From contig OY762654.1 in assembly GCA_963666205.1 (NCBI GenBank), forward strand, positions 2,624,001 to 2,688,000: a DNA stretch of 64,000 nt, given 5' to 3'. Both the position numbers and the translations under genes were made by a program. This document shows positions 7,247 to 23,724 of the stretch, piece by piece. The notes beneath the pieces are model-generated. The model had not been told where the DNA came from. It searched no databases and saw only the letters and a list, made by a program, of their open reading frames with translations. Position 1 is the first letter of the stretch, and every line of letters begins with the position of its first letter. The DNA is from Synergistales bacterium (lineage in GTDB: Bacteria; Synergistota; Synergistia; Synergistales; JAFGMB01).

Positions 7247-7693
7247 TTGAAGGTAATATTAGTTGAAGATGTAAAGAAACTTGGGAAAAAGGGTGAACTT
7301 GTCGATGCTTCTGACGGTTATGCCAGGAATTTCCTTATTCCGAGAGGTTTAGCCGAAGAGGCTACTGCACCCAGACTTCAGGAATGGAAACAGAAACAAA
7401 GATCTATGGAAGCAAAGGAATCCAGGCTGAAGCAGAATGCGGATGATATAAGAAAGCATCTCCAGGGAAAACAGGTCAAAGTTAAAGTGAGTTGCGGTGA
7501 AACCGGTAAGTTATTTGGAAGTGTTACAAGTTTACACGTGGCTGAGGCTATCAAAGAGCAGATGGAGGTTGATGTAGCCAGAAAAGATATAAAGATGGCT
7601 GAAGTCATAAAGAATACTGGCCTATATCCCTTTACAATTAAACTGTACCCAGGCGTAGAGGCCAAAATGACATTGACCGTAGAGGGTGAATAA
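7247..7693 (+). CDS. rplI: 50S ribosomal protein L9
   Basis: MKVILVEDVKKLGKKG, GYARNFLIP, GKLFGSVT. Confidence 0.98.
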   Translation: MKVILVEDVKKLGKKGELVDASDGYARNFLIPRGLAEEATAPRLQEWKQKQRSMEAKESRLKQNADDIRKHLQGKQVKVKVSCGETGKLFGSVTSLHVAEAIKEQMEVDVARKDIKMAEVIKNTGLYPFTIKLYPGVEAKMTLTVEGE

Positions 7694-9048
7694 TGCTTAG
7701 CCAATCCCTTCTTGACAGGGTAGTGCCTCACAGTCTCGAGGCTGAGAGGGCCGTTCTTGGTGCCTGTATTGTTGATCGGGATGCGCTCAATACTGTGATA
7801 GAGATGCTTGAAATGACAGATTTTTATGATCTCAATCACCAGGTCGCCTTTGAAGCTATTGCAGATATGTCCCACAGGGATAAACCTGTCGACCCCCTTA
7901 CACTTATGGATGAGTTTTCCAAGAGGGGCATTACAGAAAGACTTGGAGGGCAGGCTTTTATCGTAGGTCTGGTTGATGCGGTTCCAACTACTGCCAATGT
8001 TGAATACCACTCTGCTATTGTCAAGGAAAAATCCCTGCACCGGCGATTGATACAAGTAGGTAATCAATTGGTTAAGCTCGGTTACTCGGAAGACAGGGAT
8101 GTAAAAGATCTTATGGAAGAGGCGGAACAGGCTGTTTTCGCTATATCTCAGGACAGGAATAAAAGGACCTTTAAAGCAGTTGCGGATGTTCTGCCTCCTG
8201 CTTTTAAAAGAATTGAGGAGCAGTTCCATAATACGGACCAGACAGTTACCGGAACCCAGACGCCTTTTATAGATTTTAACCGTCTGACAAGCGGTTTCCA
8301 GCCTGGAAGCCTGAATATTATTGCTGCACGCCCTTCAATGGGGAAGACCGCCCTTGCCATAAATATGGCTGAATATGTTGGAACAGAGAGACATACTCCC
8401 GTCCTGATTTTCAGCCTTGAAATGGGGGCTGAACAGCTTGTACAAAGAATGCTGGGTTCAGTGGCGGGAATTAATATACATGACCTTAACACGGGCTCTT
8501 TTGCTGATAAGGACTGGGATAAACTCACTAATGCTGCCGCAAAACTCTCTCAGTCATCAATTTTCATTGATGACAGCTCAATGCTTTCGACAGTAGAATT
8601 CAGGGCAAGGTGTAGAAGATTTAAAGCTCGTTACGAAAATCTTGGCCTTATAGTTGTTGACTATCTTCAGTTGATGAGTTTTTCGAGAAAAATAGACAGT
8701 AAACAGCAGGAAGTAGCAGAGATCTCAAGGGCTCTCAAGGGTGTGGCTAGAGAACTGGAAGTTCCGGTAATAGCTTTATCTCAGCTTTCAAGAGCAGTTG
8801 AACAGCGGACAGAAAAGATCCCTCAACTTTCAGACCTCAGGGATAGCGGAGCCATCGAACAGGATGCGGACATGGTGCTTCTTCTTTACAGAAAGGGCTA
8901 TTATGATTCCGCTCAGTCGGAGGAAGAAGAGGATAATACTGCTCTTATAAGGATTGCCAAGCACAGGAATGGTCCAACAGGAGACATAAGGCTGATATTC
9001 ATAAAAGAATTCACTCGTTTTGAAAACTATGGTGGTTTCGGATTTTAA
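7693..9048 (+). CDS. dnaB: Replicative DNA helicase
   Basis: PHSLEAERAVLG, AARPSMGKT, VVDYLQL, LSQLSR, SDLRDSGAIEQDAD, KHRNGPTG; no intein. Confidence 0.98.
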   Translation: MLSQSLLDRVVPHSLEAERAVLGACIVDRDALNTVIEMLEMTDFYDLNHQVAFEAIADMSHRDKPVDPLTLMDEFSKRGITERLGGQAFIVGLVDAVPTTANVEYHSAIVKEKSLHRRLIQVGNQLVKLGYSEDRDVKDLMEEAEQAVFAISQDRNKRTFKAVADVLPPAFKRIEEQFHNTDQTVTGTQTPFIDFNRLTSGFQPGSLNIIAARPSMGKTALAINMAEYVGTERHTPVLIFSLEMGAEQLVQRMLGSVAGINIHDLNTGSFADKDWDKLTNAAAKLSQSSIFIDDSSMLSTVEFRARCRRFKARYENLGLIVVDYLQLMSFSRKIDSKQQEVAEISRALKGVARELEVPVIALSQLSRAVEQRTEKIPQLSDLRDSGAIEQDADMVLLLYRKGYYDSAQSEEEEDNTALIRIAKHRNGPTGDIRLIFIKEFTRFENYGGFGF

Positions 9049-9111
9049 ATTCAGAAATTTTTCCATTGAAGTCTTTTTTAATGTCATTTATTTTTTCTCT
9101 GGAGGCGCTAA

Positions 9112-10053
9112 ATGCTTGGAGCCGGAAGATTTTTCAGAACTGATCCGCTTGTTGTCGAAAAGGAAGATATATCTTCTCCCCTTTATCTGCAGGGAACAAA
9201 TGTGCTGGAAATACCTCTGGATGAGATCCGTCCAAACCCATCCCAGCCACGGAAAGTCTTTGATGAAAATATGCTGGAAGAACTTTCAGCGTCCATAAGG
9301 GAGATCGGCCTTATTCAGCCAGTTGTAGTACGCCCTCTGGAACAAGGTTACGAACTGATCGTTGGTGAGAGAAGACTCAGGGCTGCCCGTAAAGCGGGTC
9401 TGGTTAAGATTCCTGCCCTTGTTCAGGATGTTGAACCTTCACGGCAGCGTCTGATGGCTCTTATGGAGAATATCCATAGGAGCGATCTGACTTCAGTGGA
9501 AGAAGCCCTTTCGTTGAAGGAGATCCTTGACAGAACCGGTTGGAATCAGACCGAACTGGCAGGCAAACTTGGAAGATCCCAGTCCTCTATTGCCAATAAA
9601 TTACGCCTCCTGCGACTTGAAGATCCTGTACAGCAAATGATACTTTCAGGCAAACTTGGTGAAAGGCAGGCGCGAGCTCTGATCGGACTCCCTGCCCCGG
9701 AACAGGTTGTTCTGGCTGAAAGAACTATTGAAGAAGATATCAGTGCCAAAAAGCTTGAAGAGCTTGCCGGATCCCTCCTTAAGAAGCTGCGTTCTCAAGG
9801 AGATAAGCCCCCTGTTTGTTCCAGAAAGCCTGCAGGTCTTCCTTTCTTTGGTCCGGAAGGTCCTACTGGAGCTCTCTTGAAAGATCTTGCACTGGTTGTC
9901 GAAGGAAGCAGGAAAAAGGGTGTACCGGTTCTATGGAAAGTTAGACAGCTTGCGCAGAATGAACTGGTTGTAGAGATAAAGGTCAACCTCGATGATAAAC
10001 ATAAAGATCTCAGGAAGGCAGTGAATGGACTCAATGAAGAAGAAACAGACTGA
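9112..10053 (+). CDS. ParB-family CTPase/HTH protein with Noc-type recognition residues
   Basis: PNPSQPRK, GERRLRA, ENIHRSDL, HTH QTELAGKLGRSQSSIANKLRLL. Confidence 0.9.
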   Translation: MLGAGRFFRTDPLVVEKEDISSPLYLQGTNVLEIPLDEIRPNPSQPRKVFDENMLEELSASIREIGLIQPVVVRPLEQGYELIVGERRLRAARKAGLVKIPALVQDVEPSRQRLMALMENIHRSDLTSVEEALSLKEILDRTGWNQTELAGKLGRSQSSIANKLRLLRLEDPVQQMILSGKLGERQARALIGLPAPEQVVLAERTIEEDISAKKLEELAGSLLKKLRSQGDKPPVCSRKPAGLPFFGPEGPTGALLKDLALVVEGSRKKGVPVLWKVRQLAQNELVVEIKVNLDDKHKDLRKAVNGLNEEETD

Positions 10054-11860
10054 CAATATAAAATCCTTTTCCCCTTCCCTTGGGAGTTCAAATTCACCCG
10101 AAGATGGGTTGAACAGCACAAAGGGTCCTGTACCGGACGTGGTTTTTTTTATCCTCGTCCTTGTCTCTCTTGCTCTTCCCAATATTATTTTTTCGGGTAT
10201 GTTCTGGTTTCAGACCCTCCATTTAATGAAATGGTTCGTGGCGATGGTTCCCATAGGTATCCTTTCATTGTTCCTCGGATTCAGACTATTGCGTTCAGGA
10301 GCCTCAGATATTGGTTTCAGGATAGATATCTTTGGCTGGATCTGGCTTTTTTTATTGCTTTATATTACTCTCCAGCCACTTTGGGTTGATATTCGTTCTG
10401 TGCCGACCTTTGTTCGGGAATGGTTCTTTTTTGCAACTCTCTGGATTACTTACATCCTGTGCTATAACTTTTTCAGAGGTAAATATCTTCGACCCATACT
10501 ATGGCTGGCAAACATCAATGCGGCATTGAATGTTATTTTCGCTGAGTTACAGATAACGTCTTTAAATTCGCCCTTCCCTTTTATCCTTCCTACACCAGGA
10601 AATTATATAGGTAATACAGGTCAGCAGAATATGTTGGGTTTCTGGCTTGCGATATGTGCTTTGAACAGTATATTTCTTCATGTAGCATATAGATCAGAAA
10701 AGGATTCGAATACTTTAACTGGCAGATTGTTGAAATATTCCAATCTCTGTATATTAGCTCTCCTGGGTTGGGGTATCTGGAACAGCACCAGCAGGTCAGC
10801 CATACTTTCCCTCCTGTGCGGTATATTATTCTTTCTAATTCTTATTCTCAGGGACATGAAAAAAGAGCATCTTAGAAGGCTTGCATTAGTAGTTCTCATA
10901 TTTGTAATAGCTCTTTCTTCAGCGATGGTATTTAGTCAGCAAAGGGTCGGTAAGATGATATCAAAAACTTTTGATATTGTGAAAAATCCGGAAAAAATAG
11001 CCAATAGAGATTCCATCTGGTTGAGTTCCTGGTCCATGTTCACAAGTCAGCCCATCAAAGGTGTAGGATTGGGGCAGTACAAATGGCATTATCTTGATGG
11101 GCAGCGTGAAATGCTGAAAAAACATCCCCATATGGACTGGAAGTTCACCTATTGGGCCCATAATGAATACCTTCAGTGGTTCTGTGAAGCAGGACTTATC
11201 CCGGGGATCATATTAATGGCTATGGCTTTCTGGTGGCTCTGGTCCCTTTTCAGATGGGTGATATTGAAAAAACAGATATCCCTTGAGGCTGTCTGGGGTA
11301 TTTCCATGCTTGGGCTGATCTGGTTCAATGCCATCTGGACCAGACCCTTCCACCGTATAGAGGATGCCCTTTGGATGTCCTTTGCTTTTGCTCTTGCCAA
11401 CAGGGATATCCTGCCTCTGGAATCATCGTGGACAAAGGTGAGGAGAGGCTATCTTTATCGCGCTCTTGGAGCATTGATCCTTTTTTGTTCGATAGTTGGG
11501 TTCGGGTATCTTTTTCATGGAATGCAGGGAGATTTATTGTTAAGAAAGGCTGTTCAGACCAAGCACCCATTCACTCAACGCACCTACCTTGAAAGGGCTT
11601 ATGATCATCTTCTGGTAAGGGATATAGCCGAAAGACAGCTTGCTTACCATTACCTTTCTATTGGAGCCGCCAGCAAGAATACAGATTATACTGTCGAGGG
11701 AGTGGAAAGGCTATACAGGTATTTTTTAAGGGAACCCCATTCAAGGGAACTGAAAACCCTTATGGACTGGGGTGTCAGACTTCAGAATGTAGAATTGACA
11801 AGGGAGATAGCTTCCTATCTCAAACCTGGTTCATATAATCTGCAAATGAGGAAAAATTGA
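10025..11860 (+). CDS. O-antigen ligase family (Wzy_C) membrane protein, PglL/O-OTase-like
   Basis: Many TM segments; GNTGQQN, STSRSA, PIKGVGLGQY, AHNEYLQWFCEAG; soluble helical C-terminus; overlaps end of the ParB-family gene. Confidence 0.8.
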   Translation: MDSMKKKQTDNIKSFSPSLGSSNSPEDGLNSTKGPVPDVVFFILVLVSLALPNIIFSGMFWFQTLHLMKWFVAMVPIGILSLFLGFRLLRSGASDIGFRIDIFGWIWLFLLLYITLQPLWVDIRSVPTFVREWFFFATLWITYILCYNFFRGKYLRPILWLANINAALNVIFAELQITSLNSPFPFILPTPGNYIGNTGQQNMLGFWLAICALNSIFLHVAYRSEKDSNTLTGRLLKYSNLCILALLGWGIWNSTSRSAILSLLCGILFFLILILRDMKKEHLRRLALVVLIFVIALSSAMVFSQQRVGKMISKTFDIVKNPEKIANRDSIWLSSWSMFTSQPIKGVGLGQYKWHYLDGQREMLKKHPHMDWKFTYWAHNEYLQWFCEAGLIPGIILMAMAFWWLWSLFRWVILKKQISLEAVWGISMLGLIWFNAIWTRPFHRIEDALWMSFAFALANRDILPLESSWTKVRRGYLYRALGALILFCSIVGFGYLFHGMQGDLLLRKAVQTKHPFTQRTYLERAYDHLLVRDIAERQLAYHYLSIGAASKNTDYTVEGVERLYRYFLREPHSRELKTLMDWGVRLQNVELTREIASYLKPGSYNLQMRKN

Positions 11861-11896
11861 CCCCTTTTTCCTTGCTGAACCCTTGTGGAGGATTTT

Positions 11897-12484
11897 ATGG
11901 TTAAGTCCAGAAAAGCCTTTACCCTTATCGAAATACTTGTAGTAATAGCCATTACTGGAGTTATTCTTACAGCAGCCATGGCTCCAATTGTCCTTACAGT
12001 AAGGAACCTCAGGATTACGGAAAAGGATTTTGGAACCAGGGAGGCCATGTGGAAGTCTTTGTCTTTTATTGCAAGAGATCTTCGGCAGTCCATTCCCGGA
12101 CCATCAGGTCCGTCACTGAAACTGTTACATGGTGAAAGACTTGGAGACGGAGCAGATGATATAGTCTGTTTCTGGAGTTCTTTGCCCATTTCACACGGTA
12201 TGCCTCCTGGTTCTGTTATGTACAGGATCATTTCCGAAAGGAATCAACTTCCCGGACTTTACAGAGTTGTTTTTCCATCCCTTGAACCTGCTAAAATCGA
12301 TTGCAGAGAAATGCCTGAAAAGGATCTTCAGATACTCATCCCTTACGCTGAAAGCTTTCGTATCTCTGTATGGGATGGAGAAACATGGGTTGAAGAATAT
12401 GAAGGTCCTCGACCAGCCGGTGTTCGCTTTACCCTTGAAAGACGGGGAGAGGTGGTAGAATATGTTGACTGGATCCCAAGATAG
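11897..12484 (+). CDS. gspJ: T2SS minor pseudopilin, GspJ-like
   Basis: Prepilin motif KA|FTLIEILVV, IARDLRQ, C-terminal RPAGVRFTL; position before gspK. Confidence 0.75.
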   Translation: MVKSRKAFTLIEILVVIAITGVILTAAMAPIVLTVRNLRITEKDFGTREAMWKSLSFIARDLRQSIPGPSGPSLKLLHGERLGDGADDIVCFWSSLPISHGMPPGSVMYRIISERNQLPGLYRVVFPSLEPAKIDCREMPEKDLQILIPYAESFRISVWDGETWVEEYEGPRPAGVRFTLERRGEVVEYVDWIPR

Positions 12485-13382
12485 GAAACATGGATTTATA
12501 CTTGTTTCCATCCTTCTTGTCCTGACAGTCCTTCTTTCCTGTACTGTAGGTTACGCATGGTTCGCAAGGGCCCAGTTCAAGCGGATATCTGCAGAAAGAT
12601 TTGAACTTCGCTCAAGGAGTATTGCCTATGCTGCGGTATTGCAAATAGCCAAAGGACTGCAGTATGATAAGAACGATTATGATTCCTATACTGAAGAATG
12701 GTTCGGGCAGAACGCTATTCCCATAGATGATCTGGGAATTCTGCTTGTTAATATTGAACCTCTGGATGACCTTTTTCCTGTGAATGAACTATTTCTACCA
12801 GATGGAGTTACCCTTCGTAATGAAATCAGGGCACCCTGGGAGAAAATATGGAAAGATCGCAATCAGGAAGGCTGGGGAACTGTCATCCTTGATTTTCTTG
12901 ATGAGGATGTCAAGCCCAGATTGGGAAGCTATGAAAGGCGTTTTTTCATCAACAGGGACATAGCCGATCTTTCAGACTTTCTTGTACTGGAGGGTTTTCC
13001 GCAGGAACTCATTTCAGGAAATGCTGGCATGACAGGACTCAAAGAACTTCTTACTCCATGGAGCTCTGGTAAGATCAACATTAATGTTGCCCCCCTTGAA
13101 GTTCTTGTCCTGCTTGATGGTATAGATGAATCTATCGCTGGAGATATAATTGAAACAAGAGCTGTTAACCCTTTCACGGATCTGAAGGATCTGACAGAAA
13201 TGCAGTCTTTCTCTGAAGCTCTTGTGCCTCGTATAATGAATATGGTTACATTTAAAAGCACCTACTTTCGAGTAGTTATGAAGGTCTTAAGACCCGATAA
13301 CGAATCAGCGATGATCTATCGCGTTATTCTTAAAAAAGACGGTTCCAGAAGCACGTCCATAGTAAAATGGGAGGAAATCTAA
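12462..13382 (+). CDS. gspK: T2SS minor pseudopilin GspK
   Basis: G|FILVSILLVL, YDSYTEEW, GKININVAPLEVL, NPFTDLKDL, KSTYFRV. Confidence 0.88.
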   Translation: MLTGSQDRKHGFILVSILLVLTVLLSCTVGYAWFARAQFKRISAERFELRSRSIAYAAVLQIAKGLQYDKNDYDSYTEEWFGQNAIPIDDLGILLVNIEPLDDLFPVNELFLPDGVTLRNEIRAPWEKIWKDRNQEGWGTVILDFLDEDVKPRLGSYERRFFINRDIADLSDFLVLEGFPQELISGNAGMTGLKELLTPWSSGKININVAPLEVLVLLDGIDESIAGDIIETRAVNPFTDLKDLTEMQSFSEALVPRIMNMVTFKSTYFRVVMKVLRPDNESAMIYRVILKKDGSRSTSIVKWEEI

Positions 13383-13385
13383 AGA

Positions 13386-14561
13386 ATGACCAGATCCCCT
13401 AGCAAGGTCCTTATATGCTCTTCTGCCGGAGAGATAACATTCTTGCCCCGTAATCTTCTAGAACGGATTCCCCTCAAAAGGGGAGAATCTCTTTGTCTGA
13501 TGCCTTTTAAAAGCCTTTCCATACAGCCCTTTTCATATCCCTTTACGAATCTTTCCCAGATAAGAGAAGCACTGGCAATAAAGGTTAGACCCTATAGAAT
13601 AGAGGGTAAGGGAGTTGAGATTTTTCCCGCTGTTTTTGATAAGGATGGCAGATCTTCCCGGGGGGTTGCATGGTTTATTTCTTCCGATGAACTGGAAAAA
13701 ACTGAGGCGAACCTGACGGATATTTCCGGAAATATCATGAATTGGCCATTGCCAATGGCTTTTGCTTCAAAGGTGAATGGTACTGGATCAGTTATCTGGA
13801 CCGATGGCGAAAGTATCTGTTCAATGCTCTTCAAGGGTTATTATCCTGTGCTTTACAGATGGAATGTTTATTCTGAAAATTGCACAGAAAGAGAAAAACA
13901 ATGGCTTTATTCCTATTCCCGTTCAAGTGGCGATGAGATTGAAGAGGCAGTGGTCATTGACTCCAGGAAAACAGAGGAGTATGAAAGCCTGGTTTCAACT
14001 TCCCTTCTGGAGACACTGAAGGCTTTTCCCAGATATTCCCAGATAAATGTTTCTAAAAAGGTAATGGATTCATTTCTTATGACCGAACGAATGACAGGTC
14101 TTTTGAGCAGGATCCTTTCTGTAATACTTGTTTCCGGCATCCTTTTTGCTTCGGGTTCTTTTATCAGGTATTCATCTTCTGAAAGGCATCTGGAAACCCT
14201 GCAGACGAGGAGTATTGAAGTATTCAGGGATGTTTTCCATGCCAGGGACAGGATTATTGATCCGCTAAGCCAGGCTAAGTCCATAATTGCTGAAATAGCA
14301 GGGACTGAAAAAGGACTTTCTCTTGAAGAACTTATGGCCCGCATTGGAATGGCATGGTCAGAGGTTGAGCAAAGTGGGATAGTGTTAAACTCTATAAGGT
14401 ACAGTGGAGATTATATGGACATGTCTGGTACTGCATCAGAGATGGTTTCGGTTCAGGTACTTCAGAAATCCCTCGATACTAAGGAAATCAAAAGCAGTAT
14501 CGGGGATATTCAACAGATACCAGGCGGTGGTATCAGGTTTAATATGACCATCAGGTGGTGA
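13386..14561 (+). CDS. gspL: T2SS GspL-like protein
   Basis: Cytoplasmic N-domain, single TM near residue 245, periplasmic FRDVF..RIIDPLSQA; position between K and M. Confidence 0.7.
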   Translation: MTRSPSKVLICSSAGEITFLPRNLLERIPLKRGESLCLMPFKSLSIQPFSYPFTNLSQIREALAIKVRPYRIEGKGVEIFPAVFDKDGRSSRGVAWFISSDELEKTEANLTDISGNIMNWPLPMAFASKVNGTGSVIWTDGESICSMLFKGYYPVLYRWNVYSENCTEREKQWLYSYSRSSGDEIEEAVVIDSRKTEEYESLVSTSLLETLKAFPRYSQINVSKKVMDSFLMTERMTGLLSRILSVILVSGILFASGSFIRYSSSERHLETLQTRSIEVFRDVFHARDRIIDPLSQAKSIIAEIAGTEKGLSLEELMARIGMAWSEVEQSGIVLNSIRYSGDYMDMSGTASEMVSVQVLQKSLDTKEIKSSIGDIQQIPGGGIRFNMTIRW

Positions 14562-15073
14562 TTGACATGGCTCGTTTCCCTTCTGACATCAATGAAAAAC
14601 TGGGTTCTATGCTATCCTTTCCAGGATTCAGGAAAGTGGTGCTGCTTTTCCTCGGATGTTTCCTTGTGTGGGGAAGTTCTATCTATTTTCTTCAGGAAAA
14701 GGCGACATTATTGTCAAGGATAACTATCCAGGAAAGACGATTCAATGAACTTCTACAACTTGCTGCTACATACAAGAGGCTTTCTCTACCCCTTGCTGGG
14801 GAGGATATGAGTGCTTTTGAGGGGAAAGATCCGGTAGAGATAATATCTTCTACTCTGGACCAGGTCGGACTTAAATCCAACCTTGTCCAGTTATCAGTAT
14901 TATCCAGCGGTGTCAATGTACAGTTGGAAGATCTTTATGGAGAGGATATGGGAACATTTATCCAGCAGATCCGACTGAATGGTCTGGAAATAATGTCCGC
15001 TGAAATAAAGACTCTTCCACAGGGTGAGGGTCTTCTATTCAGCCTTTCAATGATAGTAGGTAAACGATTATGA
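14555..15073 (+). CDS. gspM: T2SS GspM-like protein
   Basis: Single TM, coiled coil, ferredoxin-like tail (VNVQLEDL); synteny. Confidence 0.6.
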   Translation: MVIDMARFPSDINEKLGSMLSFPGFRKVVLLFLGCFLVWGSSIYFLQEKATLLSRITIQERRFNELLQLAATYKRLSLPLAGEDMSAFEGKDPVEIISSTLDQVGLKSNLVQLSVLSSGVNVQLEDLYGEDMGTFIQQIRLNGLEIMSAEIKTLPQGEGLLFSLSMIVGKRL

Positions 15074-15672
15074 GGTCGTCTTTTCGTTTTATTTTCCTCA
15101 TATTTATGTTTCTTCTGTTATTTTTTTCTTTTTCATGGCTCCTTTTTCCCTGGGAAGGGGCGGGAAGTTTTGTCCTTGGAAGGATACAGAATGAATTGCA
15201 GACAAGAGGGGTCTATGTGAACTATGAGGATCTCAACAGAGAGAATCTGGTTGATCCTGTTCTCGTAATGAAAGATACTTCTTTAGTGTATCTTATGGGA
15301 AATCTCCAGGTCGGTGTAGTGAAAGTAAGTCCTGATATAGTATCCTCCATTTTGAGTCTTAAACCTTCCCTTCGTGTTAGCCTTCAGGAAGGAATTGTCT
15401 TTATTGGAGGAGAAGAATCAGGTACCTTCGGAAATGGGGAATTTATCCTTCGAGTTCTTCCGGGTAAAATATTTGTGGATGAAGTAAGTTTTAAAGGAGA
15501 TATTTCAGCTTCCGGAGATATGGTTTTTGATACATCTGCAGGCGGGATAAATTCAGCATCCCTGGTTTTCAGGGTTCCAGAAAAACTGGAAGTATTTCTC
15601 AAGGCTCTATCAAGAAGCAGGACACTCAACAAAAACAACTCAGGGGAATGGCAGTTTATAATTAAAAAATAG
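15070..15672 (+). CDS. gspN: T2SS GspN-like protein
   Basis: N-terminal TM ending LFPW, beta-rich body; synteny after M. Confidence 0.55.
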   Translation: MRSSFRFIFLIFMFLLLFFSFSWLLFPWEGAGSFVLGRIQNELQTRGVYVNYEDLNRENLVDPVLVMKDTSLVYLMGNLQVGVVKVSPDIVSSILSLKPSLRVSLQEGIVFIGGEESGTFGNGEFILRVLPGKIFVDEVSFKGDISASGDMVFDTSAGGINSASLVFRVPEKLEVFLKALSRSRTLNKNNSGEWQFIIKK

Positions 15673-15685
15673 GGAGAGAGTTCGA

Positions 15686-16630
15686 ATGATAAAGAGCAGG
15701 ATATTCCTTGGGCACTTTTCATATAATAGCGTATCAGTTCTATCTATTATAGAAAAAATGCTGCCCTTTATGGCCTCGATAATGATAGCTTTTGCTCTTG
15801 CATGGGTCTCTTCTTCTTCTCTTGACTGGTACTTTACACTCAGAAATTATGAATCTGACCGGATCTCTATGCTTGAAGCGAAGGGTTTGGAAGCAGGACT
15901 TGTCATCCCTGGAGGAACAAGTCCTGCTATCAGTGATTTTGTAAGCGCAAACCCCTTTAATGTTATGGAATATGAAAAAAACCATTCAGGACCTGCTTCT
16001 ACAGAAAAAAAAGAAGAGATATTTTCCCTTGATGGCATGACTCTTTCAGGCACAATTCCGGGAATAGGGGCTCAGCTCCGTGATGGAGAAGCGACACCCT
16101 TTATCTTAAGTGGCCAGGAATACAGAGGATACACTCTTCAGGACGTTGAGAGTAACAGGGCCTTTTTTTTCAAGAATGATGATGAATTTATCCTTCATCT
16201 CTTCTATGGCCAGAACGGAGACAGCAAGAAAGGTTCGGGGAAAAATCCATCTCAGGTTAAACAGACTTTGCCGGTAAGAGAAAATCCAGGTATAGCTCCT
16301 GCCGAAGTTGGTCAAAACGGTACTATTGCCAGGGAGCTTGTCAACGATCTACTAATGAACCCTTTCAATGAAATGAAAAAAGTTCGGTTGAGGGCGAAGT
16401 TTCAGGACGGTGAGGCCCTTGGAATTGAAGTTCAGTGGCTTGCCAGGGATAGTCTGCTTGGAGAACTTGGAGTAGAAAAGGGAGATATAGTCCAGTCTAT
16501 AAACAGTGTACCCATTAACAATATGGGGGATATTTCCAATGCAATCAATTCCCTTATGGGTGGAGACCGCTTTGAAGTAGAGGTCCTTCGAAAAGGGGAA
16601 AAGGTTCCCCTGACCTATACGGTAAAGTAG
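15686..16630 (+). CDS. gspC: T2SS GspC with C-terminal PDZ domain
   Basis: TM, HR-like LSGTI..GYTLQDVESNRA, PDZ LGVEKGDIVQSIN..VEVLRKGE. Confidence 0.82.
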   Translation: MIKSRIFLGHFSYNSVSVLSIIEKMLPFMASIMIAFALAWVSSSSLDWYFTLRNYESDRISMLEAKGLEAGLVIPGGTSPAISDFVSANPFNVMEYEKNHSGPASTEKKEEIFSLDGMTLSGTIPGIGAQLRDGEATPFILSGQEYRGYTLQDVESNRAFFFKNDDEFILHLFYGQNGDSKKGSGKNPSQVKQTLPVRENPGIAPAEVGQNGTIARELVNDLLMNPFNEMKKVRLRAKFQDGEALGIEVQWLARDSLLGELGVEKGDIVQSINSVPINNMGDISNAINSLMGGDRFEVEVLRKGEKVPLTYTVK

Positions 16631-16636
16631 AAGATT

Positions 16637-16984
16637 ATGATATCCAGGAAGGGTCTCTATTCCAGAAGCGGTGCTTTTACTCTTATTGAAGTTCTTGTTG
16701 CAGTCATCATTTTAGGATTGGTCGCCACTGCATCTTTTCGGTTGATGATAATGTCAGGTCGTACTATCAGAGAGGTGCAGGTTCAGAGAGAACTCCTGAA
16801 TAGGGCAAGGGAGATCCAGTTTTCCATGCTTTTCCAGGAAAAGGCAGATAGCGGTATAGAGAAGGATATGGCCTGGGAGACAAGAAAAATCTCTCAGCCG
16901 GTTTTCGGAGGCAAGTGGGAAGTTGCTTATCGCAGGGTTGATCTTACCTATAAAGGCAGAACTATAGTGATTTATTTGCCGTGA
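16637..16984 (+). CDS. gspI: T2SS minor pseudopilin, GspI-like
   Basis: GA|FTLIEVLVAVIILG, 115 aa. Confidence 0.75.
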   Translation: MISRKGLYSRSGAFTLIEVLVAVIILGLVATASFRLMIMSGRTIREVQVQRELLNRAREIQFSMLFQEKADSGIEKDMAWETRKISQPVFGGKWEVAYRRVDLTYKGRTIVIYLP

Positions 16985-17004
16985 AAAAAGGAAGGGGTGA
17001 AGCT

Positions 17005-18963
17005 ATGAAAAGATATCTTGTAATTCTTCTAGCTTTGTTGATGTTTTTATCTTTTGGAATTGATTCTACCCGGGCACAGGATACCTCTGATGAACAGAAT
17101 CTGCTTCAGGCAGCGGGAATGATGAGGGAATCAGGAAGGGTACAGTTCAACTTCTCAGATATCGACATCGTAAAATTTATTCGATTCATGTCAGAACTGC
17201 TCCAGGAAAATATTATCGTGCCTCCATCCGTAAAGGGAAACATTTCAGTCATTTCTCCCCAACCGGTTCCACTGGACCAGGCAAGGCAGGTTATGCTTTC
17301 TGTTCTTGAGATGAACGGATTATCCGTTCAGGAAATGGGACAGTACAGTAAAGTGGTACCCCTGAAGGCAGGTTCAGGAATCGAAAACGTTATTAGAAAA
17401 GGTAAAATGGGACCTGGAGTAGGAGAACAGGTTGTAGCCCAGGTGGTACCTCTGGATTATGTGTCTGCAGCATTTGTAGCGGATGCGGTTAAACAGATAT
17501 CTGGAAAGGATGTTGGCATCCTTCCCATAGGCATGGGTAACGAGATCCTTCTCACCGGTAAAGCATCTGATGTAAACCGGGCTGTCAGCCTTGTACAGAC
17601 CCTTGATGTTCCAGACAGTATCCGTACAAGCAGATCCGTAACATTAAAGTATTCTTCCCCAAGGGTTGTTGAATCCCATCTGAATTCCCTTGCCAAGGAT
17701 AAGTCAGGCCCAGTCAATGGCCTGGTGGCAATAGCAGATGAAGCAAGCAGCAAGATCATCCTGGTAGGTGAAAGGAATACCCTGTCTGCCGCATGCAGGA
17801 TCATACGTGACATAGATATTCCCGCACGTTCTGGAGACTTTCATGTTTATAAACTTCAGAATGCCGATGCTGAAAAGGTTGCCGAGCAGCTGAGCCAGAT
17901 ACTGGATGTTTCCGCCCGCCTGCAGACCAATAAAAAGGAAGGACAGGCGTCCACTCCTACAACGGTGGTAGCGGATATCCCAACCAACAGCCTCATCTTT
18001 GCAGTGCCTCAACACCAGTACCAGTCTATAGTGGATATAATCGAACAGATAGATATCCAGCCCAAACAGGTTATGCTCAGGGGCCTTATCGCGGAGGTCA
18101 ATCTGACAAAACTCAATGATGCCGGCATCGACTGGGCCACATGGGGGGGTGCTGTTACTGGAGATGCTTATATTGCAGCCCAGGCCCAGCTTGGTAATGC
18201 ATCGGTCCCGGCAGAGATAATTAATTACTTCCAGAATCTGACTACAACGGAAAGAGAAATATACAATGATGCGGGTAATGTAGTTGGTACTATAACAGAG
18301 TATGATACCAAGGCTCTCGTCTACTCTTACATTAAACTTACAAAACAGTTTGATGCCATAAACGTCCTTTCAATGCCGAGACTTCTCTGCACGGACAACA
18401 TGCCAAGCGAACTCCAGGTTGGACAGGTTATACCACAGTTAAGTGCAAAAACTTCAGATATAACCAACCCGAATTCAGTTCAGAACAGCTATGATTACAA
18501 GGATACCGGGTTGATATTGAACGTTACTCCCCATATTCGCAGTGGAAATCTTGTATCCCTGGAAATAGAGCAGAGTACGGAAGAGGTTCTCAGTGCGATG
18601 ACATCAGATACTCCTGTAACAGCAAAGAGGAAGATCAAGACTACCGTGCAGGTTGAAAATGGAAAGACGGTTATCCTGGGCGGTCTGATCAGGGAAGCAG
18701 AAAAAGCCATGAAACAGAGAGTTCCCGGACTTTCCTACATACCATTGGTGGGCAATCTTTTCAAAAGTTCGACAAAACAGAGGGAAAAGATCGAACTCAT
18801 GGTGTTCCTGACGCCATATATTCTGGAGACTCCCAAAGAGGCTTCCAGTTTTACCAGCCAGATAGTAATTTCAGGGGATCATGGAATGAATGAGGCGGAA
18901 AGGGCCCTTCAGGAACGCCTTGAAAGGGAATACCAGGAGATCCTTAAAAAGGAAAGCCAGTGA
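17005..18963 (+). CDS. gspD: T2SS secretin GspD
   Basis: Signal peptide, N0 FNFSDIDI, LQNADAEKVA, QVMLRGLIAEV, DTGLILNVTPHI, VILGGLI, VPGLSYIPLVGNLF, ELMVFLTP. Confidence 0.96.
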   Translation: MKRYLVILLALLMFLSFGIDSTRAQDTSDEQNLLQAAGMMRESGRVQFNFSDIDIVKFIRFMSELLQENIIVPPSVKGNISVISPQPVPLDQARQVMLSVLEMNGLSVQEMGQYSKVVPLKAGSGIENVIRKGKMGPGVGEQVVAQVVPLDYVSAAFVADAVKQISGKDVGILPIGMGNEILLTGKASDVNRAVSLVQTLDVPDSIRTSRSVTLKYSSPRVVESHLNSLAKDKSGPVNGLVAIADEASSKIILVGERNTLSAACRIIRDIDIPARSGDFHVYKLQNADAEKVAEQLSQILDVSARLQTNKKEGQASTPTTVVADIPTNSLIFAVPQHQYQSIVDIIEQIDIQPKQVMLRGLIAEVNLTKLNDAGIDWATWGGAVTGDAYIAAQAQLGNASVPAEIINYFQNLTTTEREIYNDAGNVVGTITEYDTKALVYSYIKLTKQFDAINVLSMPRLLCTDNMPSELQVGQVIPQLSAKTSDITNPNSVQNSYDYKDTGLILNVTPHIRSGNLVSLEIEQSTEEVLSAMTSDTPVTAKRKIKTTVQVENGKTVILGGLIREAEKAMKQRVPGLSYIPLVGNLFKSSTKQREKIELMVFLTPYILETPKEASSFTSQIVISGDHGMNEAERALQERLEREYQEILKKESQ

Positions 18964-18988
18964 TCTGATACTGATTTACAGAGATACT

Positions 18989-19014
18989 AAAGGGAGCCCT
19001 GTGGGTTCCCTTTT
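18989..19014 (+). terminator. Intrinsic terminator after gspD
   Basis: AAAGGGAGCCC-TGT-GGGTTCCCTTTT. Confidence 0.7.
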
Positions 19015-19024
19015 GCATTTGTAA

Positions 19025-19033
19025 TGATATAGT
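19025..19033 (+). promoter_or_regulatory. Possible extended -10 promoter for parA-gspEFGH
   Basis: TGaTATAGT in an AT-rich spacer 30 nt before the parA start. Confidence 0.4.
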
Positions 19034-19063
19034 ATTGTTAATAAATGATTATAAACAGGGGAG

Positions 19064-19852
19064 ATGGATTTGGGACCTGTAATAGCTGTTGCCAATCAAA
19101 AGGGAGGGGTCGGTAAAACTACCCTTGCTGTTAACATTGCGGCATGTATATCCTATAGGTGGAAAGATACGGGAAGGCGAATACTTCTAGTGGATACTGA
19201 CCATCAGGCCAATGCTTCCTACATACTTTCCCGGGATTCGGGCAAATACGAGGAGACTCTTGCGGCTATCTATCAGGATGAAATAGCCCGGGATTACGGA
19301 GACCTGATTCAGGCTACCAATGTTTCGGGAGTAGATATTGTGCCTGCATCTCCCATGATGGCCTCTGAAGAGATGAAGCTTGCCAGTAGGGAGAAGAAGG
19401 GTTACAGGCTCAAGTATTTCCTGGAGTTCAATGCTTCAAATTATGATCTGGTTATTATAGACTGCCCGCCAGCTATAAATCTGTTTGTTCTCAATGCTTT
19501 TTATGTTGCAGACCAGATACTTGTTCCCCTTCCTCCTGAAGATCTGGCTATACAGGGATTCCAGCAGTTGATGGCCCAGGTCCAGGCTGTAAGAGAAGTA
19601 AACCCTGGCTTGTCATTCCTTGGCGTAGTTGTCAACATGCTTACCGATAGAGTACGGATACACAGGGAGATAAGGTGTTTCCTGGAAGAAGAATTTGGTG
19701 ATAAGCTATTGGGCATAATACACAGGTCTGTCAGGATACAGGAGGCAGAAGCCATGAATCTGACCCTTCTCGATTATTCAAGAACCTCCCGTTCTTTCAA
19801 GGAATTTCTTGGAGTTGCTGACAATATTATTGAAGATCTGGGGTTGAAATAG
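19064..19852 (+). CDS. ParA/Soj family ATPase
   Basis: IAVANQKGGVGKTT deviant Walker A, LVDTDHQAN, IIDCPP, IHRSVRIQEA. Confidence 0.95.
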   Translation: MDLGPVIAVANQKGGVGKTTLAVNIAACISYRWKDTGRRILLVDTDHQANASYILSRDSGKYEETLAAIYQDEIARDYGDLIQATNVSGVDIVPASPMMASEEMKLASREKKGYRLKYFLEFNASNYDLVIIDCPPAINLFVLNAFYVADQILVPLPPEDLAIQGFQQLMAQVQAVREVNPGLSFLGVVVNMLTDRVRIHREIRCFLEEEFGDKLLGIIHRSVRIQEAEAMNLTLLDYSRTSRSFKEFLGVADNIIEDLGLK

Positions 19853-19853
19853 A

Positions 19854-21638
19854 ATGGGGCAGAAAAAATTCAGATACAGTAAGCATAATCCGCTCAAAGA
19901 ACTTGTCATTGAAACTTTCGGGGATGAAAAGACAGAAGCGGAGAAAAAGGAAATAACTGATAATGACCAGAGATCGTCCAAGGATATCCCGGTAAGAATA
20001 AGGGAGAATCCATCAGAAAATCTTTCTGATTCTGAATCTGAGCACGAAAATCTTCCAGAGCCTTTTGCCAGGGATAATTCATCGGAAACGGCAGAAGAAA
20101 GTCAGTTTGAAACTGAAAGTGTTCCTGATAACAGGGGGAGTTCCGGATCGATTGAAGATGGTCCATCTCTTCCAGCTCCATCAGTGATCGCATCCTTTCT
20201 ACCTAATTCCATAAGTCTGGATTCCCTCCGTCAGTCCAGCATCCTGCCTATAAGGATAAACGAAAATGTTCTGACAGTTGCTGTGCCCACCATGGATCTT
20301 TATCCCAGTGCCCAGATGCTTGGAAGTGTTTTCGGAAGGGCAGTGGAGATAGAGATACATGATCAGCAGATGATAGACAGGATAATCAGGATTCTTTACG
20401 ATATCAGGAGTGGAGTAGCGGATGAAACGGTCCAGGCTGTCGAGGGGATAGAGGATATAAACGATCTGACAAGGGAGGATGTGTTGAGCGACTCTGTTGA
20501 TGTTCCTGTCATCAAACTTGTTAATGGACTTATTCTCGATGCAACCCGCCAGAGAGCGACAGATATCCATGTAGAACCTTATGAAGACCATGTTCAGGTA
20601 AGATTTCGTATTGACGGAGTCCTTCATGACAGGTTGCGTCTGCCAAGAACCCATCAGGCACCGCTTACAAGCAGGATTAAGGTAATGGCAAGGCTTGACA
20701 TAGCAGAACATATGATACCCCAGGATGGAAGGATCGGTATCACCATAGGTGGTCGAGCTGTAGATATAAGGATAGGGATTGTTCCAACCCAGCACGGAGA
20801 GAGAATTGCTCTGAGGGTTCTCGACAAGGCCCAGGGTGTATTGACGCTTGAAGAACTGGGGATGGCGAAAATTGAAAGAGAGAGCATGGATGAGCTCATA
20901 AGATCTCCACATGGAATGATCCTTTTTACCGGCCCTACAGGTTCGGGTAAGACCACCACTATGTATGCCATACTTCAGGCTCTTTCCAGACCGGAAGTGA
21001 ATATTATAACTGTAGAGGATCCTATAGAGTACGATCTGCCTGGAGTGGCACAGATACAGGTCAATGAAAAAGCAGGAGTGACCTTTGCTTCTGCTCTGCG
21101 ATCCATACTGCGACAGGATCCGGATATAGTAATGATAGGTGAAATGAGAGATTATGATACGGCTCATATTGGTGTACAGGCTTCACTTACCGGTCATCTT
21201 GTTCTCTCCACTCTTCACACAAATGATTCGGTGAGTGCGGTAATAAGATTGATAGATATGGGGGTAGAGCCCTACCTGGCCTCCGGGTCCCTTATCGGAG
21301 TAGTTGCCCAGAGACTGGTCAGAAGGATCTGCCCGGAGTGCAGGTATAGAATTGCCCCCCCTGCCATCATAAGATCCCAGGGGGTAGATACTGCATATAT
21401 GGGAAAGGGATGCGAACATTGTAAATGGACCGGTTATCATGGCAGGGTTGGTCTATACGAGCATTTTCTTGTAAGCAATGTTATTGCAGAGGCTATCTCT
21501 TCTTCCGCCCCGGCTTCGAGATTAAGAGAGCTTGCAAGGGAACAGGGTTTCAAAACTTTATGGGAAATAGGTCTTAATGCAGTTTCATCAGGTATAACTT
21601 CTCCGGAAGAACTTCTCCGCGTGACAGGAGAGGATTAA
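19854..21638 (+). CDS. gspE: T2SS ATPase GspE with atypical N-terminal extension
   Basis: ATDIHVEP, PQDGRI, GPTGSGKTTT, TVEDPIEY, LRQDPDIVMIGEMRD, GHLVLSTLHTN, CPEC..CEHC. Confidence 0.95.
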   Translation: MGQKKFRYSKHNPLKELVIETFGDEKTEAEKKEITDNDQRSSKDIPVRIRENPSENLSDSESEHENLPEPFARDNSSETAEESQFETESVPDNRGSSGSIEDGPSLPAPSVIASFLPNSISLDSLRQSSILPIRINENVLTVAVPTMDLYPSAQMLGSVFGRAVEIEIHDQQMIDRIIRILYDIRSGVADETVQAVEGIEDINDLTREDVLSDSVDVPVIKLVNGLILDATRQRATDIHVEPYEDHVQVRFRIDGVLHDRLRLPRTHQAPLTSRIKVMARLDIAEHMIPQDGRIGITIGGRAVDIRIGIVPTQHGERIALRVLDKAQGVLTLEELGMAKIERESMDELIRSPHGMILFTGPTGSGKTTTMYAILQALSRPEVNIITVEDPIEYDLPGVAQIQVNEKAGVTFASALRSILRQDPDIVMIGEMRDYDTAHIGVQASLTGHLVLSTLHTNDSVSAVIRLIDMGVEPYLASGSLIGVVAQRLVRRICPECRYRIAPPAIIRSQGVDTAYMGKGCEHCKWTGYHGRVGLYEHFLVSNVIAEAISSSAPASRLRELAREQGFKTLWEIGLNAVSSGITSPEELLRVTGED

Positions 21639-21639
21639 T

Positions 21640-22788
21640 TTGCCACAGTTTGCTTACACTGCTTACGATAACAAAGGAAAAGTGAAAAAGGGTTTCATGG
21701 AAGGTTCAGCCTCTTCTGCTGTGATAGGACAGCTCGAAAGCAGGGGCTTCATTGTCGTTGAAGTCAACCAGATTGTAAAAACCAGGAAAAAGGGCAGGAT
21801 AAGATCCCTTCCTCTGGAAGCACAGGCCATGTTCTGTCGAAGTATTTCGTCATATCTTAAAAGCGGACTTTCTCTTACGGATACTCTTAAGCTTCTTGCC
21901 AAACAGTCTTCGGAGAAAAAGGTCTCTGATGCCTATGCCTCTATACTTGAAGAGATACAGGCAGGACGAAAGTTTTCTGTTGCTCTCGAGGATCTGGGTA
22001 TCTTCCGGGAAAGCCTGAGGCGAGTAGTGGAATCCGGAGAGCAGAGCGGAACCCTTATAGATGTCCTGAAGCAGACGGCAGATCAGCTTAAACTCGAAAT
22101 ATCTCTGAGGCGCAAAGTTCGAGCTGCCTTGACATATCCCATTGTTATGGTTTTTGTCGGTATTGGTGTTGTATCCTTTCTGTTAGCTTATGTGGTTCCA
22201 AAGCTGGCAGATCTTTTTGCAGACATGGGACAGGATCTTCCCATCCCCACCAGGATCCTGTTAACTTCCTCTGAAATTATTAAAACTGGAGCAATACCAT
22301 TTCTTATCCTGATCCTTATGGCATCTTTATACTTTCGCCGAAAGAAGAAAGACCTTCCCTTTTTTCGTAAATTAAGGGAAAAAATAACCATATCTGTGGT
22401 AACTTCCCAACTGGGTACACTTCTGGATTCAGGGATTCCCCTGGTTCAGGCCCTTCGCATGTCTGCTCCGATGGATCGCAGGGCGGAGAGATGGCTTCAT
22501 GTAGCAGGTCTTGTCAAAGAGGGTTACCGTTTTGATACGGCTCTTGAAAGGGAGGGTTCTTTTCCCGAAGAAATGCTATATATTATCCGTGTTGGAGAAA
22601 TGGGAGGGGATCTCTCGGGATCATTAAGACACATATCTGAAAATAACTGGGAGATCGCAGAGAGCCAGATGGAAAGGCTGGCTTCTCTTATAGAACCGGT
22701 AATGGTACTTTCTCTCGGTTTAATTGTCGGTTTTATTGTTGTAGCCATTTTGTTGCCTATCTTTGATCTATCAAGCCTAGTAAAATAA
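21640..22788 (+). CDS. gspF: T2SS inner membrane platform GspF
   Basis: MPQFAYTAYD, GEQSGTL, ALTYP, VGEMGGDL, LIEPVM, AILLPIF. Confidence 0.95.
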   Translation: MPQFAYTAYDNKGKVKKGFMEGSASSAVIGQLESRGFIVVEVNQIVKTRKKGRIRSLPLEAQAMFCRSISSYLKSGLSLTDTLKLLAKQSSEKKVSDAYASILEEIQAGRKFSVALEDLGIFRESLRRVVESGEQSGTLIDVLKQTADQLKLEISLRRKVRAALTYPIVMVFVGIGVVSFLLAYVVPKLADLFADMGQDLPIPTRILLTSSEIIKTGAIPFLILILMASLYFRRKKKDLPFFRKLREKITISVVTSQLGTLLDSGIPLVQALRMSAPMDRRAERWLHVAGLVKEGYRFDTALEREGSFPEEMLYIIRVGEMGGDLSGSLRHISENNWEIAESQMERLASLIEPVMVLSLGLIVGFIVVAILLPIFDLSSLVK

Positions 22789-22837
22789 TATGGTCTTTAT
22801 CTTTTGCAGCCCGAAGAAAATAACAGGAGGTGTCTGG

Positions 22838-23272
22838 ATGTCCTTTCGGAAGAGCAGGTTTAGAGGGGGTTTCACCCTGGTTGAGATCCTGGTGGTCGTA
22901 GTCATACTTGGTTTGCTTGCAACCCTTGTTGCACCCAGAGTGATAGGAAGAGGAGAAGAGGCCAAAAGAACGTCTACCCTTGTTCAGATAAGGGAGATAG
23001 AACAGGCTCTGGATCTTTATAAACTGGATAATGGTTTTTATCCTGTAACAGATCAAGGTCTTGAAGCCCTGGTAACAAAACCGGCATCATCCCCTGAGCC
23101 TTTGAAATACAGGAATGAAGGCTACATGAAAAAAGTGCCCCTCGACCCTTGGGGAAGTCCTTATGTATACCGTTGTCCGGGAGATCATGGGGAATATGAC
23201 CTTTTCTCCTATGGACCGGATGCTGAGGAAGGTGGAGAAGGGAAGAACCAGGATATAACAAGCTGGGAATGA
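22838..23272 (+). CDS. gspG: T2SS major pseudopilin GspG
   Basis: G|FTLVEILVVVVILGLLA, ALDLYKLDNGFYP..QGLEALV, DPWGSPYVY, SYGPD; ATG after SD AGGAGG. Confidence 0.96.
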   Translation: MSFRKSRFRGGFTLVEILVVVVILGLLATLVAPRVIGRGEEAKRTSTLVQIREIEQALDLYKLDNGFYPVTDQGLEALVTKPASSPEPLKYRNEGYMKKVPLDPWGSPYVYRCPGDHGEYDLFSYGPDAEEGGEGKNQDITSWE

Positions 23273-23724
23273 TACCTTCTAATGCCATCAAGGAGGGACA
23301 TGCGGGTTTTACCCTGGTAGAACTGGTTATCACCGTAGCCTTGATAGGGCTAATCTCCTTTACCCTTTTTCCGCGTATCACTACTGAAAGGGATAATAAT
23401 GAAACGCTTCTTCTCCAGAGATCTATTTACGAAGCCATGGATGTTGCATCCAGTGGTTATCCCCTCCGGTTCATCATCGATTTAAAGGGGAAACTTAAAG
23501 CAGAAGTTCTGGTGATAACTGAAGACCTGGGAGAACAATGGAATAAACTTGAACTTAAATGGCTTCCAGTAAATTCCGGATGGAAGTCAGAGGCTACTGT
23601 GTTCTATATCTATCCCGATGGAACATGTTCTCCCTGGCATCTTGTTCTTGAAAAGAAAGATTATAGAACGGTTTACCTGGTATCAGTGACCGGACATGTT
23701 TACGAAGTTAAAGGCTCGCCCTAG
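23269..23724 (+). CDS. gspH: T2SS minor pseudopilin, GspH-like
   Basis: AG|FTLVELVI, YPDGTCSP; follows gspG. Confidence 0.75.
   Translation: MIPSNAIKEGHAGFTLVELVITVALIGLISFTLFPRITTERDNNETLLLQRSIYEAMDVASSGYPLRFIIDLKGKLKAEVLVITEDLGEQWNKLELKWLPVNSGWKSEATVFYIYPDGTCSPWHLVLEKKDYRTVYLVSVTGHVYEVKGSP

Follow-up and report, generated by a model that had tools for sequence, protein, structure and literature searches.

The placement and numbering of type II secretion systems (T2SSs) in the cell are poorly understood. The DNA examined here (the window, 64,000 nucleotides, G000:C1:2624001-2688000) belongs to the complete 2.95-Mb genome of a Synergistales bacterium (G000) and carries a T2SS gene cluster in which a gene of the ParA/MinD ATPase family, parA2, stands directly before gspE, the gene for the secretion motor ATPase. 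GspE begins with an extension made of a conserved peptide and an acidic linker, and on comparative grounds the association between parA2 and this extension is strongly supported. The pair suggests a secretion machine with a placement or control system of its own. The carriers of ParA2 are a few heat-loving anaerobic bacteria.

The locus was compared with a phylum-wide survey set of 268 Synergistota genomes, an order-level subset of 41 Synergistales genomes and a clustered collection of 5.8 billion proteins. Ratios of nonsynonymous to synonymous substitution rates (dN/dS) were computed against the orthologue in a genome of the same genus (G001), and residue conservation in ParA2 was judged over the seven members of its clade. 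Published work is cited by PubMed Central accession, on the basis of excerpts of the papers.

The parA2-gspE Locus

The two genes and the parts of GspE concerned are as follows.

19064-19852, + strand: parA2, a ParA/MinD-family ATPase of 262 amino acids (Pfam AAA_31, CbiA), with an alternative start at TTG 19070
19854-21638, + strand: gspE, whole gene, with its ATG at 19854
19854-19925, + strand: GspE codons 1-24, the conserved N-terminal peptide, a candidate ParA2-binding/activating motif (invariant residues, profile)
19926-20168, + strand: GspE codons 25-105, an acidic low-complexity tether (composition, low identity)
20169-21638, + strand: GspE proper, an N1-type domain followed by the T2SSE ATPase (Pfam T2SSE, PF00437, 435 bits; NCBIfam TIGR02533, 582 bits)

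The stop codon of parA2 (TAG, 19850-19852) is followed by one base and then by the gspE ATG, so that the coordinates bear out a preliminary description of this DNA, made without database searches, which had placed a ParA gene within the T2SS cluster with its stop 1 nt ahead of gspE. Flanking gspE are gspD and parA2 upstream and gspF, gspG and gspH downstream, and the context, with genes for GspC, D, F, G, K and L, is that of a T2SS cluster and not of a Tad locus. Database gene calls of 260 amino acids (P0005) and a GGGGAG stretch 6 nt before TTG 19070 suggest that the true start of parA2 may be this codon rather than 19064.

ParA2, an ATPase of the ParA Type

ParA2 matches the Pfam families AAA_31 (152 bits, cut-off 27) and CbiA (75 bits, cut-off 25.4), and its best relatives of solved structure are ParA/Soj proteins (8ray_B at 1e-35; T. 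thermophilus Soj, 1wcv/2bek). The deviant Walker A motif NQKGGVGKTT occupies residues 11-20, with K13-T19, including the signature lysine K13, invariant in 7/7 clade members; D44 and D46 of Motif 2 (Walker A') and D133 of Walker B are invariant in the clade as well. With a dN/dS of 0.06, parA2 is shown by these comparisons to be a conserved, intact ParA-type gene under strong purifying selection.

The non-specific DNA-binding patch of Soj comprises R182, R194, R208 and R211 in the T. thermophilus protein (TtSoj) and R189, K201, R215 and R218 in BsSoj (residue list excerpted from PMC6393308). When ParA2 was aligned to TtSoj and compared with this list, R196, R221 and R224 fell at TtSoj R182/R208/R211 (BsSoj R189/R215/R218), and the fourth place was taken by E208; R196 and R221 are shared by 7/7 clade members. 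The expectation from the preliminary description, that basic residues are kept at the Soj nucleoid-binding positions, is thus realized at three of the four and fails at the glutamate. The last 11-residue windows of ParA2 have a net charge of -1 to -3, unlike the cationic membrane helix of MinD, and MinD-family models score far below their cut-offs; the acidic C-terminus therefore speaks against a MinD-type amphipathic membrane helix, in agreement with what had been noted before. Against the Soj model NF041546 the protein scores 103 bits (cut-off 180) and against the CpaE-type model TIGR03815 18.8 bits (cut-off 154), and its 262 residues include no extra N-terminal domain.

The source genome holds four ParA/MinD genes, for Soj, MinD, an FlhG-type protein and ParA2. 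Three of the four ATPases have obvious cargos from their gene neighborhoods, ParA2 being the fourth: soj sits in the canonical rsmG-soj-spo0J operon at 1.74 Mb, minD adjoins minC and the FlhG-type gene is located downstream of flhF (loci at ~0.40 Mb and ~1.67 Mb). Since Soj, MinD and FlhG are all encoded elsewhere, ParA2 is a fourth, dedicated ParA. It is 32% identical to the organism's own Soj, no parB is adjacent to its gene, and in a quick tree its well-supported clade (Shimodaira-Hasegawa-like approximate likelihood ratio test, SH-aLRT, 99) has a long branch and falls outside that of the Synergistales Soj proteins.

Five more distant ParA matches (35-36% identity) occur in other genera among the 268 genomes, and tblastn detected no T2SS genes at the four of these five loci that were searched. 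The nearest neighbors of ParA2 in the tree are long-branch orphan ParAs (L171-L174, in G072, G156, G061 and G065; 34-35% identity by tblastn). Two of the orphan loci, inspected by open reading frame (ORF), lie beside POR/ferredoxin/DctP genes or a repeat protein and have an unrelated gene downstream in each case, coding in one for a 172-residue protein without a Pfam family and in the other for a 486-residue repeat protein; the N-terminus of P0125, encoded downstream of an orphan ParA, has no likeness by eye to the GspE peptide. These orphan ParAs and the genes behind them may represent another uncharacterised ParA-partner module. A metagenome scan with P0009, which like P0010 is a metagenomic ParA2 cluster, returned generic ParAs only, at no more than 37% identity, and a scan of genome contigs for ParA2 returned a contig of the same genus and two unrelated Mollicutes ParAs only.

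The N-Terminal Extension of GspE

GspE has about 105 extra N-terminal residues, a 24-residue conserved peptide followed by an acidic low-complexity linker. The TIGR02533 match, just under the equivalog cut-off of 630 bits, aligns residues 120-591, residue 120 corresponding to model position 4; a weak MshEN match covers residues 116-185 (19.8 bits, cut-off 23.1), and the tetracysteine motif C493, C496, C520 and C523 is invariant. Orthologues from genomes lacking parA2 start aligning at about residue 101-109. These limits agree with the roughly 110 extra residues before the N1 domain that had been estimated earlier. An alternative gspE start, GTG 20184 (codon 111, in frame), was considered and rejected because the frame upstream of it is open and conserved, together with the peptide, in genera that lack this GTG (G003 has no start codon there); the start accordingly lies upstream of the extension.

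Alignments of the peptide and extension comprised first five and later ten sequences. In 10/10 of these, M1, K4, F6, Y8, L14, V18, E20, T21, F22 and G23 are invariant, and position 15 is K or R in all. K5 is replaced by N or D in one lineage, and the peptide of g28, a genus of another family, starts MTDNTKNFTYDGNNALRDMVLETFGG. The conserved core is hydrophobic and aromatic with one central K/R and contains no basic run; of the "basic N-terminal peptide" proposed earlier, a conserved peptide with K4 and K/R15 stands, but the basic MGQKK start is not a conserved feature. The motif occurs only once in the source genome. The linker of the window's GspE is 81 residues long, with 23 D+E against 9 K+R and 83% polar residues, fitting its prior characterization as E/S/D/P-rich and likely disordered; among relatives its net charge ranges from -7 to -14 and its length from 81-84 residues in the same family to ~70-140 in other lineages.

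Peptide identity among relatives is 62-96%, compared with 16-69% for the linker. The dN/dS values, 0.10 in the peptide against 0.51 in the linker and 0.05 in the GspE core, place the peptide under strong purifying selection and show the linker to be relaxed. An AlphaFold2 model of GspE (5-row alignment; a poor model, with a mean predicted local distance difference test score, pLDDT, of 40.8) gives a hint only, in that it forms a helix over residues 13-22 and leaves 23-108 without structure (linker pLDDT ~24). It is typically through an N-terminal segment that the partners of ParA/MinD ATPases act, and such a partner can itself belong to the cargo (excerpts of PMC10241942, PMC11407121, PMC12462528, PMC4085708). 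In its architecture, a conserved N-terminal motif with a conserved central K/R that leads into a flexible region, GspE displays what marks the ParA-activating partner peptides and fits the partner logic given in the excerpts of PMC12462528, PMC10241942 and PMC11407121.

Within the otherwise variable linker of g28 GspE (L175/L176), the species have in common a short block, DADTEGD-[FL]-LWRT, which by alignment could be a second short linear motif.

Distribution and Co-Variation

ParA2 orthologues (53-100% identity) were found in 6/268 Synergistota genomes and matches to the peptide profile in 7/268, all at E <= 3e-17, the next best match having E = 0.013. In the seventh peptide genome the contig breaks off within the final 54 codons of parA2, immediately ahead of gspE. 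The order gspD-parA2-gspE is common to all seven (G000, G001, G003, G080, G081, G082, G083), and wherever the junction can be read the gspE ATG follows the parA2 stop after a gap of 1-2 nt. Conservation of the adjacency and co-variation of the extension with parA, both named beforehand, like the position of the GspE start, as tests of the proposed coupling, thus hold: every genome with either part has the two side by side.

Among the 41 Synergistales genomes, ParA2 is present in 3 and an orthologous gspE in 23, and it is only in those 3 that parA2 lies upstream of gspE and the extension is found. Inspection of the other 20 orthologous gspE loci, which lack parA2, revealed in 20/20 an upstream + strand ORF that matches gspD and ends 0-70 nt before gspE, and at most 38 residues ahead of the homology in GspE. 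In g28 the whole cluster is kept in the same order, from dnaB to gspH. Across lineages the ParA2 proteins are only 53-56% identical and the pair is still retained. A tree of the GspE core follows taxonomy, and on it the joint parA2/peptide trait requires three changes, at least two of them forced by well-supported branches, which means that parA2 and the peptide were gained or lost together more than once.

In the collection of 5.8 billion proteins the ParA2 clade comprises 8 clusters (55-100% identity), after which identity drops to 40%. The peptide profile, built from a 45-residue alignment, matched 12 clusters, 11 of them with PF00437 and the twelfth a 129-residue fragment from a 1,971-bp contig; on this evidence the peptide is exclusive to GspE-family proteins.

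In two genomes of family f4 (G025 and G033; L145 and L144) open frames of ~1,190-1,210 codons surround gspE, with one TAA in G033, and these may be adjacent genes in one frame.

Predicted Complex of ParA2 and the Peptide

Contact between the ParA dimer and the GspE N-terminus, for which a model had been proposed as a check, was predicted from two copies of the ParA2 alignment, two ATP molecules and GspE residues 1-40 in three runs with three controls. The score was 0.43 (median of 0.61, 0.43 and 0.33), and the best of the three controls reached 0.00; agreement between the runs covers at least 0% of contacts, and the partner pLDDT is at least 46. In calibration, the score mark was reached by 58/80 solved complexes and 2/110 mismatched pairs, and only 7/80 solved complexes but both passing mismatched pairs fell in the range up to 0.60. 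The model therefore stands above its controls but in the range where both mismatches passed, and it lends weak support to a predicted contact between the ParA2 dimer and the peptide.

The Surrounding Cluster and RNA-Library Contigs

The pair belongs to one co-directional block (7693-23724) made up of dnaB, a Noc-like ParB gene, a Wzy_C gene, the T2SS set, parA2 and gspE-F-G-H-like genes. The T2SS set looks complete, with pseudopilins, gspK, gspL, two small genes, gspC (PDZ), a gspI-like gene and gspD. Features of the block other than parA2 and gspE are listed below.

9112-10053, + strand: orphan ParB-family gene (Noc-like), with TIGR04285 (Noc) as best model at 221 bits, below cut-off, and no adjacent parA
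10025-11860, + strand: 611-residue Wzy_C (O-antigen ligase-like) membrane protein
11885-16984, + strand: upstream half of the T2SS, namely pseudopilins, gspK, gspL, two small membrane genes, gspC with PDZ and a gspI-like gene (Pfam N_methyl, T2SSK, GspL_C, PDZ), syntenic in G001, G081 and G082
16981-18963, + strand: gspD secretin (Pfam Secretin, Secretin_N, GspD N0), which abuts gspE in relatives without parA2
18989-19014, + strand: hairpin in the 100-nt gspD-parA2 spacer, with an 11-bp stem (z = -3.3 for 18964-19063)
21640-23724, + strand: gspF, gspG and a gspH-like pseudopilin gene (Pfam T2SSF, T2SSG, N_methyl), syntenic in G001, G003, G081 and G082

The preliminary description had parA heading its own unit behind a terminator. 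The hairpin does fold and is a possible attenuating terminator, but a terminator scan did not call it, nor did a promoter scan find a sigma-70-like promoter on the + strand between 18700 and 20400; for these two reasons it is no more than plausible that parA2 heads its own transcription unit. Contigs in RNA libraries of two studies span gspD-parA2 and parA2-gspE through the extension (for example X6 19621-20391 and X7 19466-20213) and also cross the hairpin, although as contigs in RNA libraries they are no proof of transcription or of a single transcript. A metatranscriptome contig of run X11 leaves the window sequence at 19876 (gspE codon 8) and continues with a P0004-like variant of the peptide, so that a related strain was present in that sample.

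The ParB-like gene lies between dnaB and the T2SS cluster, a place that is kept across several Synergistales families. In 11 genomes that lack parA2 its orthologues are found at a distance of ~7-9 kb from gspE, and they also occur in 5 genomes that have no orthologous gspE; because of this distribution, far wider than that of ParA2, it was rejected as a specific ParA2 partner.

The Wzy_C gene begins before the ParB-like gene has ended and stands immediately ahead of the pseudopilin genes; its product has counterparts of 46-47% identity in the g28 clusters and may be a pilin or pseudopilin glycosylase.

Interpretation

Whether ParA2 is the dedicated partner ATPase of the T2SS motor GspE is, in our estimate, an even call. 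In the best-supported reading, GspE would carry its own ParA2-binding, activating peptide and ParA2 would regulate the motor spatially, most likely on the nucleoid and less likely as a recruitment or gating factor. ATP-bound ParA2 dimers would be located on the nucleoid, a placement proposed because ParA2 has a basic residue at three of the four patch positions of Soj and lacks a membrane helix. A GspE hexamer would show six tethered peptides, and these would dock on ParA2 dimers, like the N-termini of ParB, McdB or TlpT on their ATPases, and stimulate ATP hydrolysis. Local depletion of ParA2 would then move or space GspE, and thus the sites where T2SS machines are energised, with the outcome that motors spread along the cell and are shared between daughters. 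No adaptor would be required, the activating peptide being built into the cargo enzyme. It is nucleoid-templated spacing of T2SS motors that we infer here; the scheme in full, with a dedicated ParA actively distributing the motors over the nucleoid as an adaptor-free Brownian ratchet driven through GspE hexamers with six activating peptides on entropic acidic tethers, is tentative and on the doubtful side.

A number of observations weigh against nucleoid-based control of GspE by ParA2. The basic patch is interrupted by E208, position 224 is R/K in 6/7 clade members and Ile in the g28 type, and ParA2 as a whole is net acidic (27 K+R against 35 D+E). The GspE peptide is also unlike the LG(R/K)GL-type motif of ParB, and its helical hydrophobic moment, no higher than 0.33, does not stand out, for which reason no amphipathic helix is claimed for it. 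The predicted complex is weak by the tool's own calibration. Since parA2 and the extension are contiguous, one insertion or deletion can add or remove both, and their co-occurrence is for that reason weaker evidence of functional coupling than it looks. Finally, most Synergistales run an orthologous T2SS without ParA2, and secretion itself can therefore do without the ParA2 system.

All of the evidence from synteny and co-variation is equally compatible with a ParA2 that acts as a recruitment or assembly-checkpoint factor in the manner of TadZ/CpaE or BcsQ, binding the GspE peptide and delivering or gating the motor at the inner-membrane platform, or parking it inactive, with no patterning by the nucleoid. 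The incomplete conservation of the DNA-binding patch in the clade is in keeping with this, as is the description of the ParA/MinD proteins of secretion machines (TadZ/CpaE, BcsQ, VirC1) as localisation or recruitment factors in the excerpted review (PMC11407121). Yet R196 and R221 are invariant, ParA2 has no membrane-targeting helix and the CpaE-type model remains far from its cut-off. A complete deviant Walker A that includes the signature lysine and the absence of an extra N-terminal domain likewise set ParA2 apart from TadZ, and a recruitment factor is considered unlikely, though it is the most probable of the alternatives.

Less probable still, and rather improbable overall, is that ParA2 and the extension are not partners at all, ParA2 having a DNA-related role (for instance with the Noc-like ParB at 9112-10053) and the extension binding GspL, the membrane or a small ligand. 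The weakness of the predicted complex, the possible origin of the co-occurrence in a single contiguous indel and the presence of an orphan ParB-family gene 9 kb upstream in the same cluster would all accord with separate roles, but the ParB-like gene has a much wider distribution than parA2, and the peptide appears on no other protein and was gained or lost with parA2 at least twice. That the pair is without function, a hitch-hiking left-over of a ParA-partner module inserted in front of gspE, seems very improbable: the nearest ParAs in the tree, orphans in other contexts with unrelated small or repeat-rich genes behind them, would fit a two-gene module that was inserted as a unit, but strong purifying selection on parA2 and the peptide, the invariant catalytic motifs and the retention of the pair between lineages that have diverged so far in ParA2 all argue otherwise. 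Spatial regulation of GspE by ParA2 remains the preferred reading, and the locus would represent a minimal two-part system (one ATPase, one peptide) that is testable in vitro, with sister genera that have an orthologous T2SS but neither parA2 nor the extension as natural controls.

Relation to Known Systems

A literature search found no ParA-associated T2SS and no dedicated T2SS positioning factor, nor is either present in the cargo list of the 2024 ParA/MinD review as excerpted (PMC11407121), supplementary tables lying outside the search; the preliminary description had likewise known of no ParA-positioned T2SS. ParA/MinD proteins are also encoded in other secretion or pilus clusters and needed to place these machines (TadZ/CpaE of Tad pili, BcsQ, VirC1; excerpt of PMC11407121). 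These serve Tad, cellulose and type IV secretion systems, however, and are either MinD-like or atypical; no description links any of them to a T2SS or has it act through a peptide of the motor ATPase.

In sequence and fold class ParA2 is closest to the ParA(Soj)-ParB(Spo0J) system, in which the partner motif likewise occupies the very N-terminus and combines hydrophobic residues with a central K/R (excerpt of PMC12462528); it differs in forming a separate clade, distant from the organism's own Soj, and in having no parB next to it. McdA-McdB of carboxysomes resembles the proposed system in combining a ParA-type ATPase with a multivalent partner that has a disordered N-terminal region, the cargo being spread over the nucleoid (excerpts of PMC11407121 and PMC10241942). 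McdB, however, is a separate cargo-binding adaptor, whereas here there is no adaptor gene and the motif is within GspE.

A functional parallel is PpfA-TlpT of the cytoplasmic chemoreceptor cluster of Rhodobacter sphaeroides, in which a nucleoid-associated ParA homologue, dedicated to this task beside the chromosomal one, has a cargo component as its ATPase activator (excerpt of PMC4085708). The earlier proposal of a partner peptide fused to the secretion ATPase is thus partly supported, but a cargo-borne activator as such has its precedent in TlpT. Unlike PpfA-TlpT, the cargo would here be a secretion motor ATPase instead of a chemoreceptor array, and the peptide is carried on a long acidic tether fused to the enzyme. 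What would be new is a partner peptide built into the cargo enzyme, a variant on the ParA/MinD cargo systems; if this holds true, secretion motors join the list of ParA/MinD cargos and an activating motif can be fused directly onto an enzyme.

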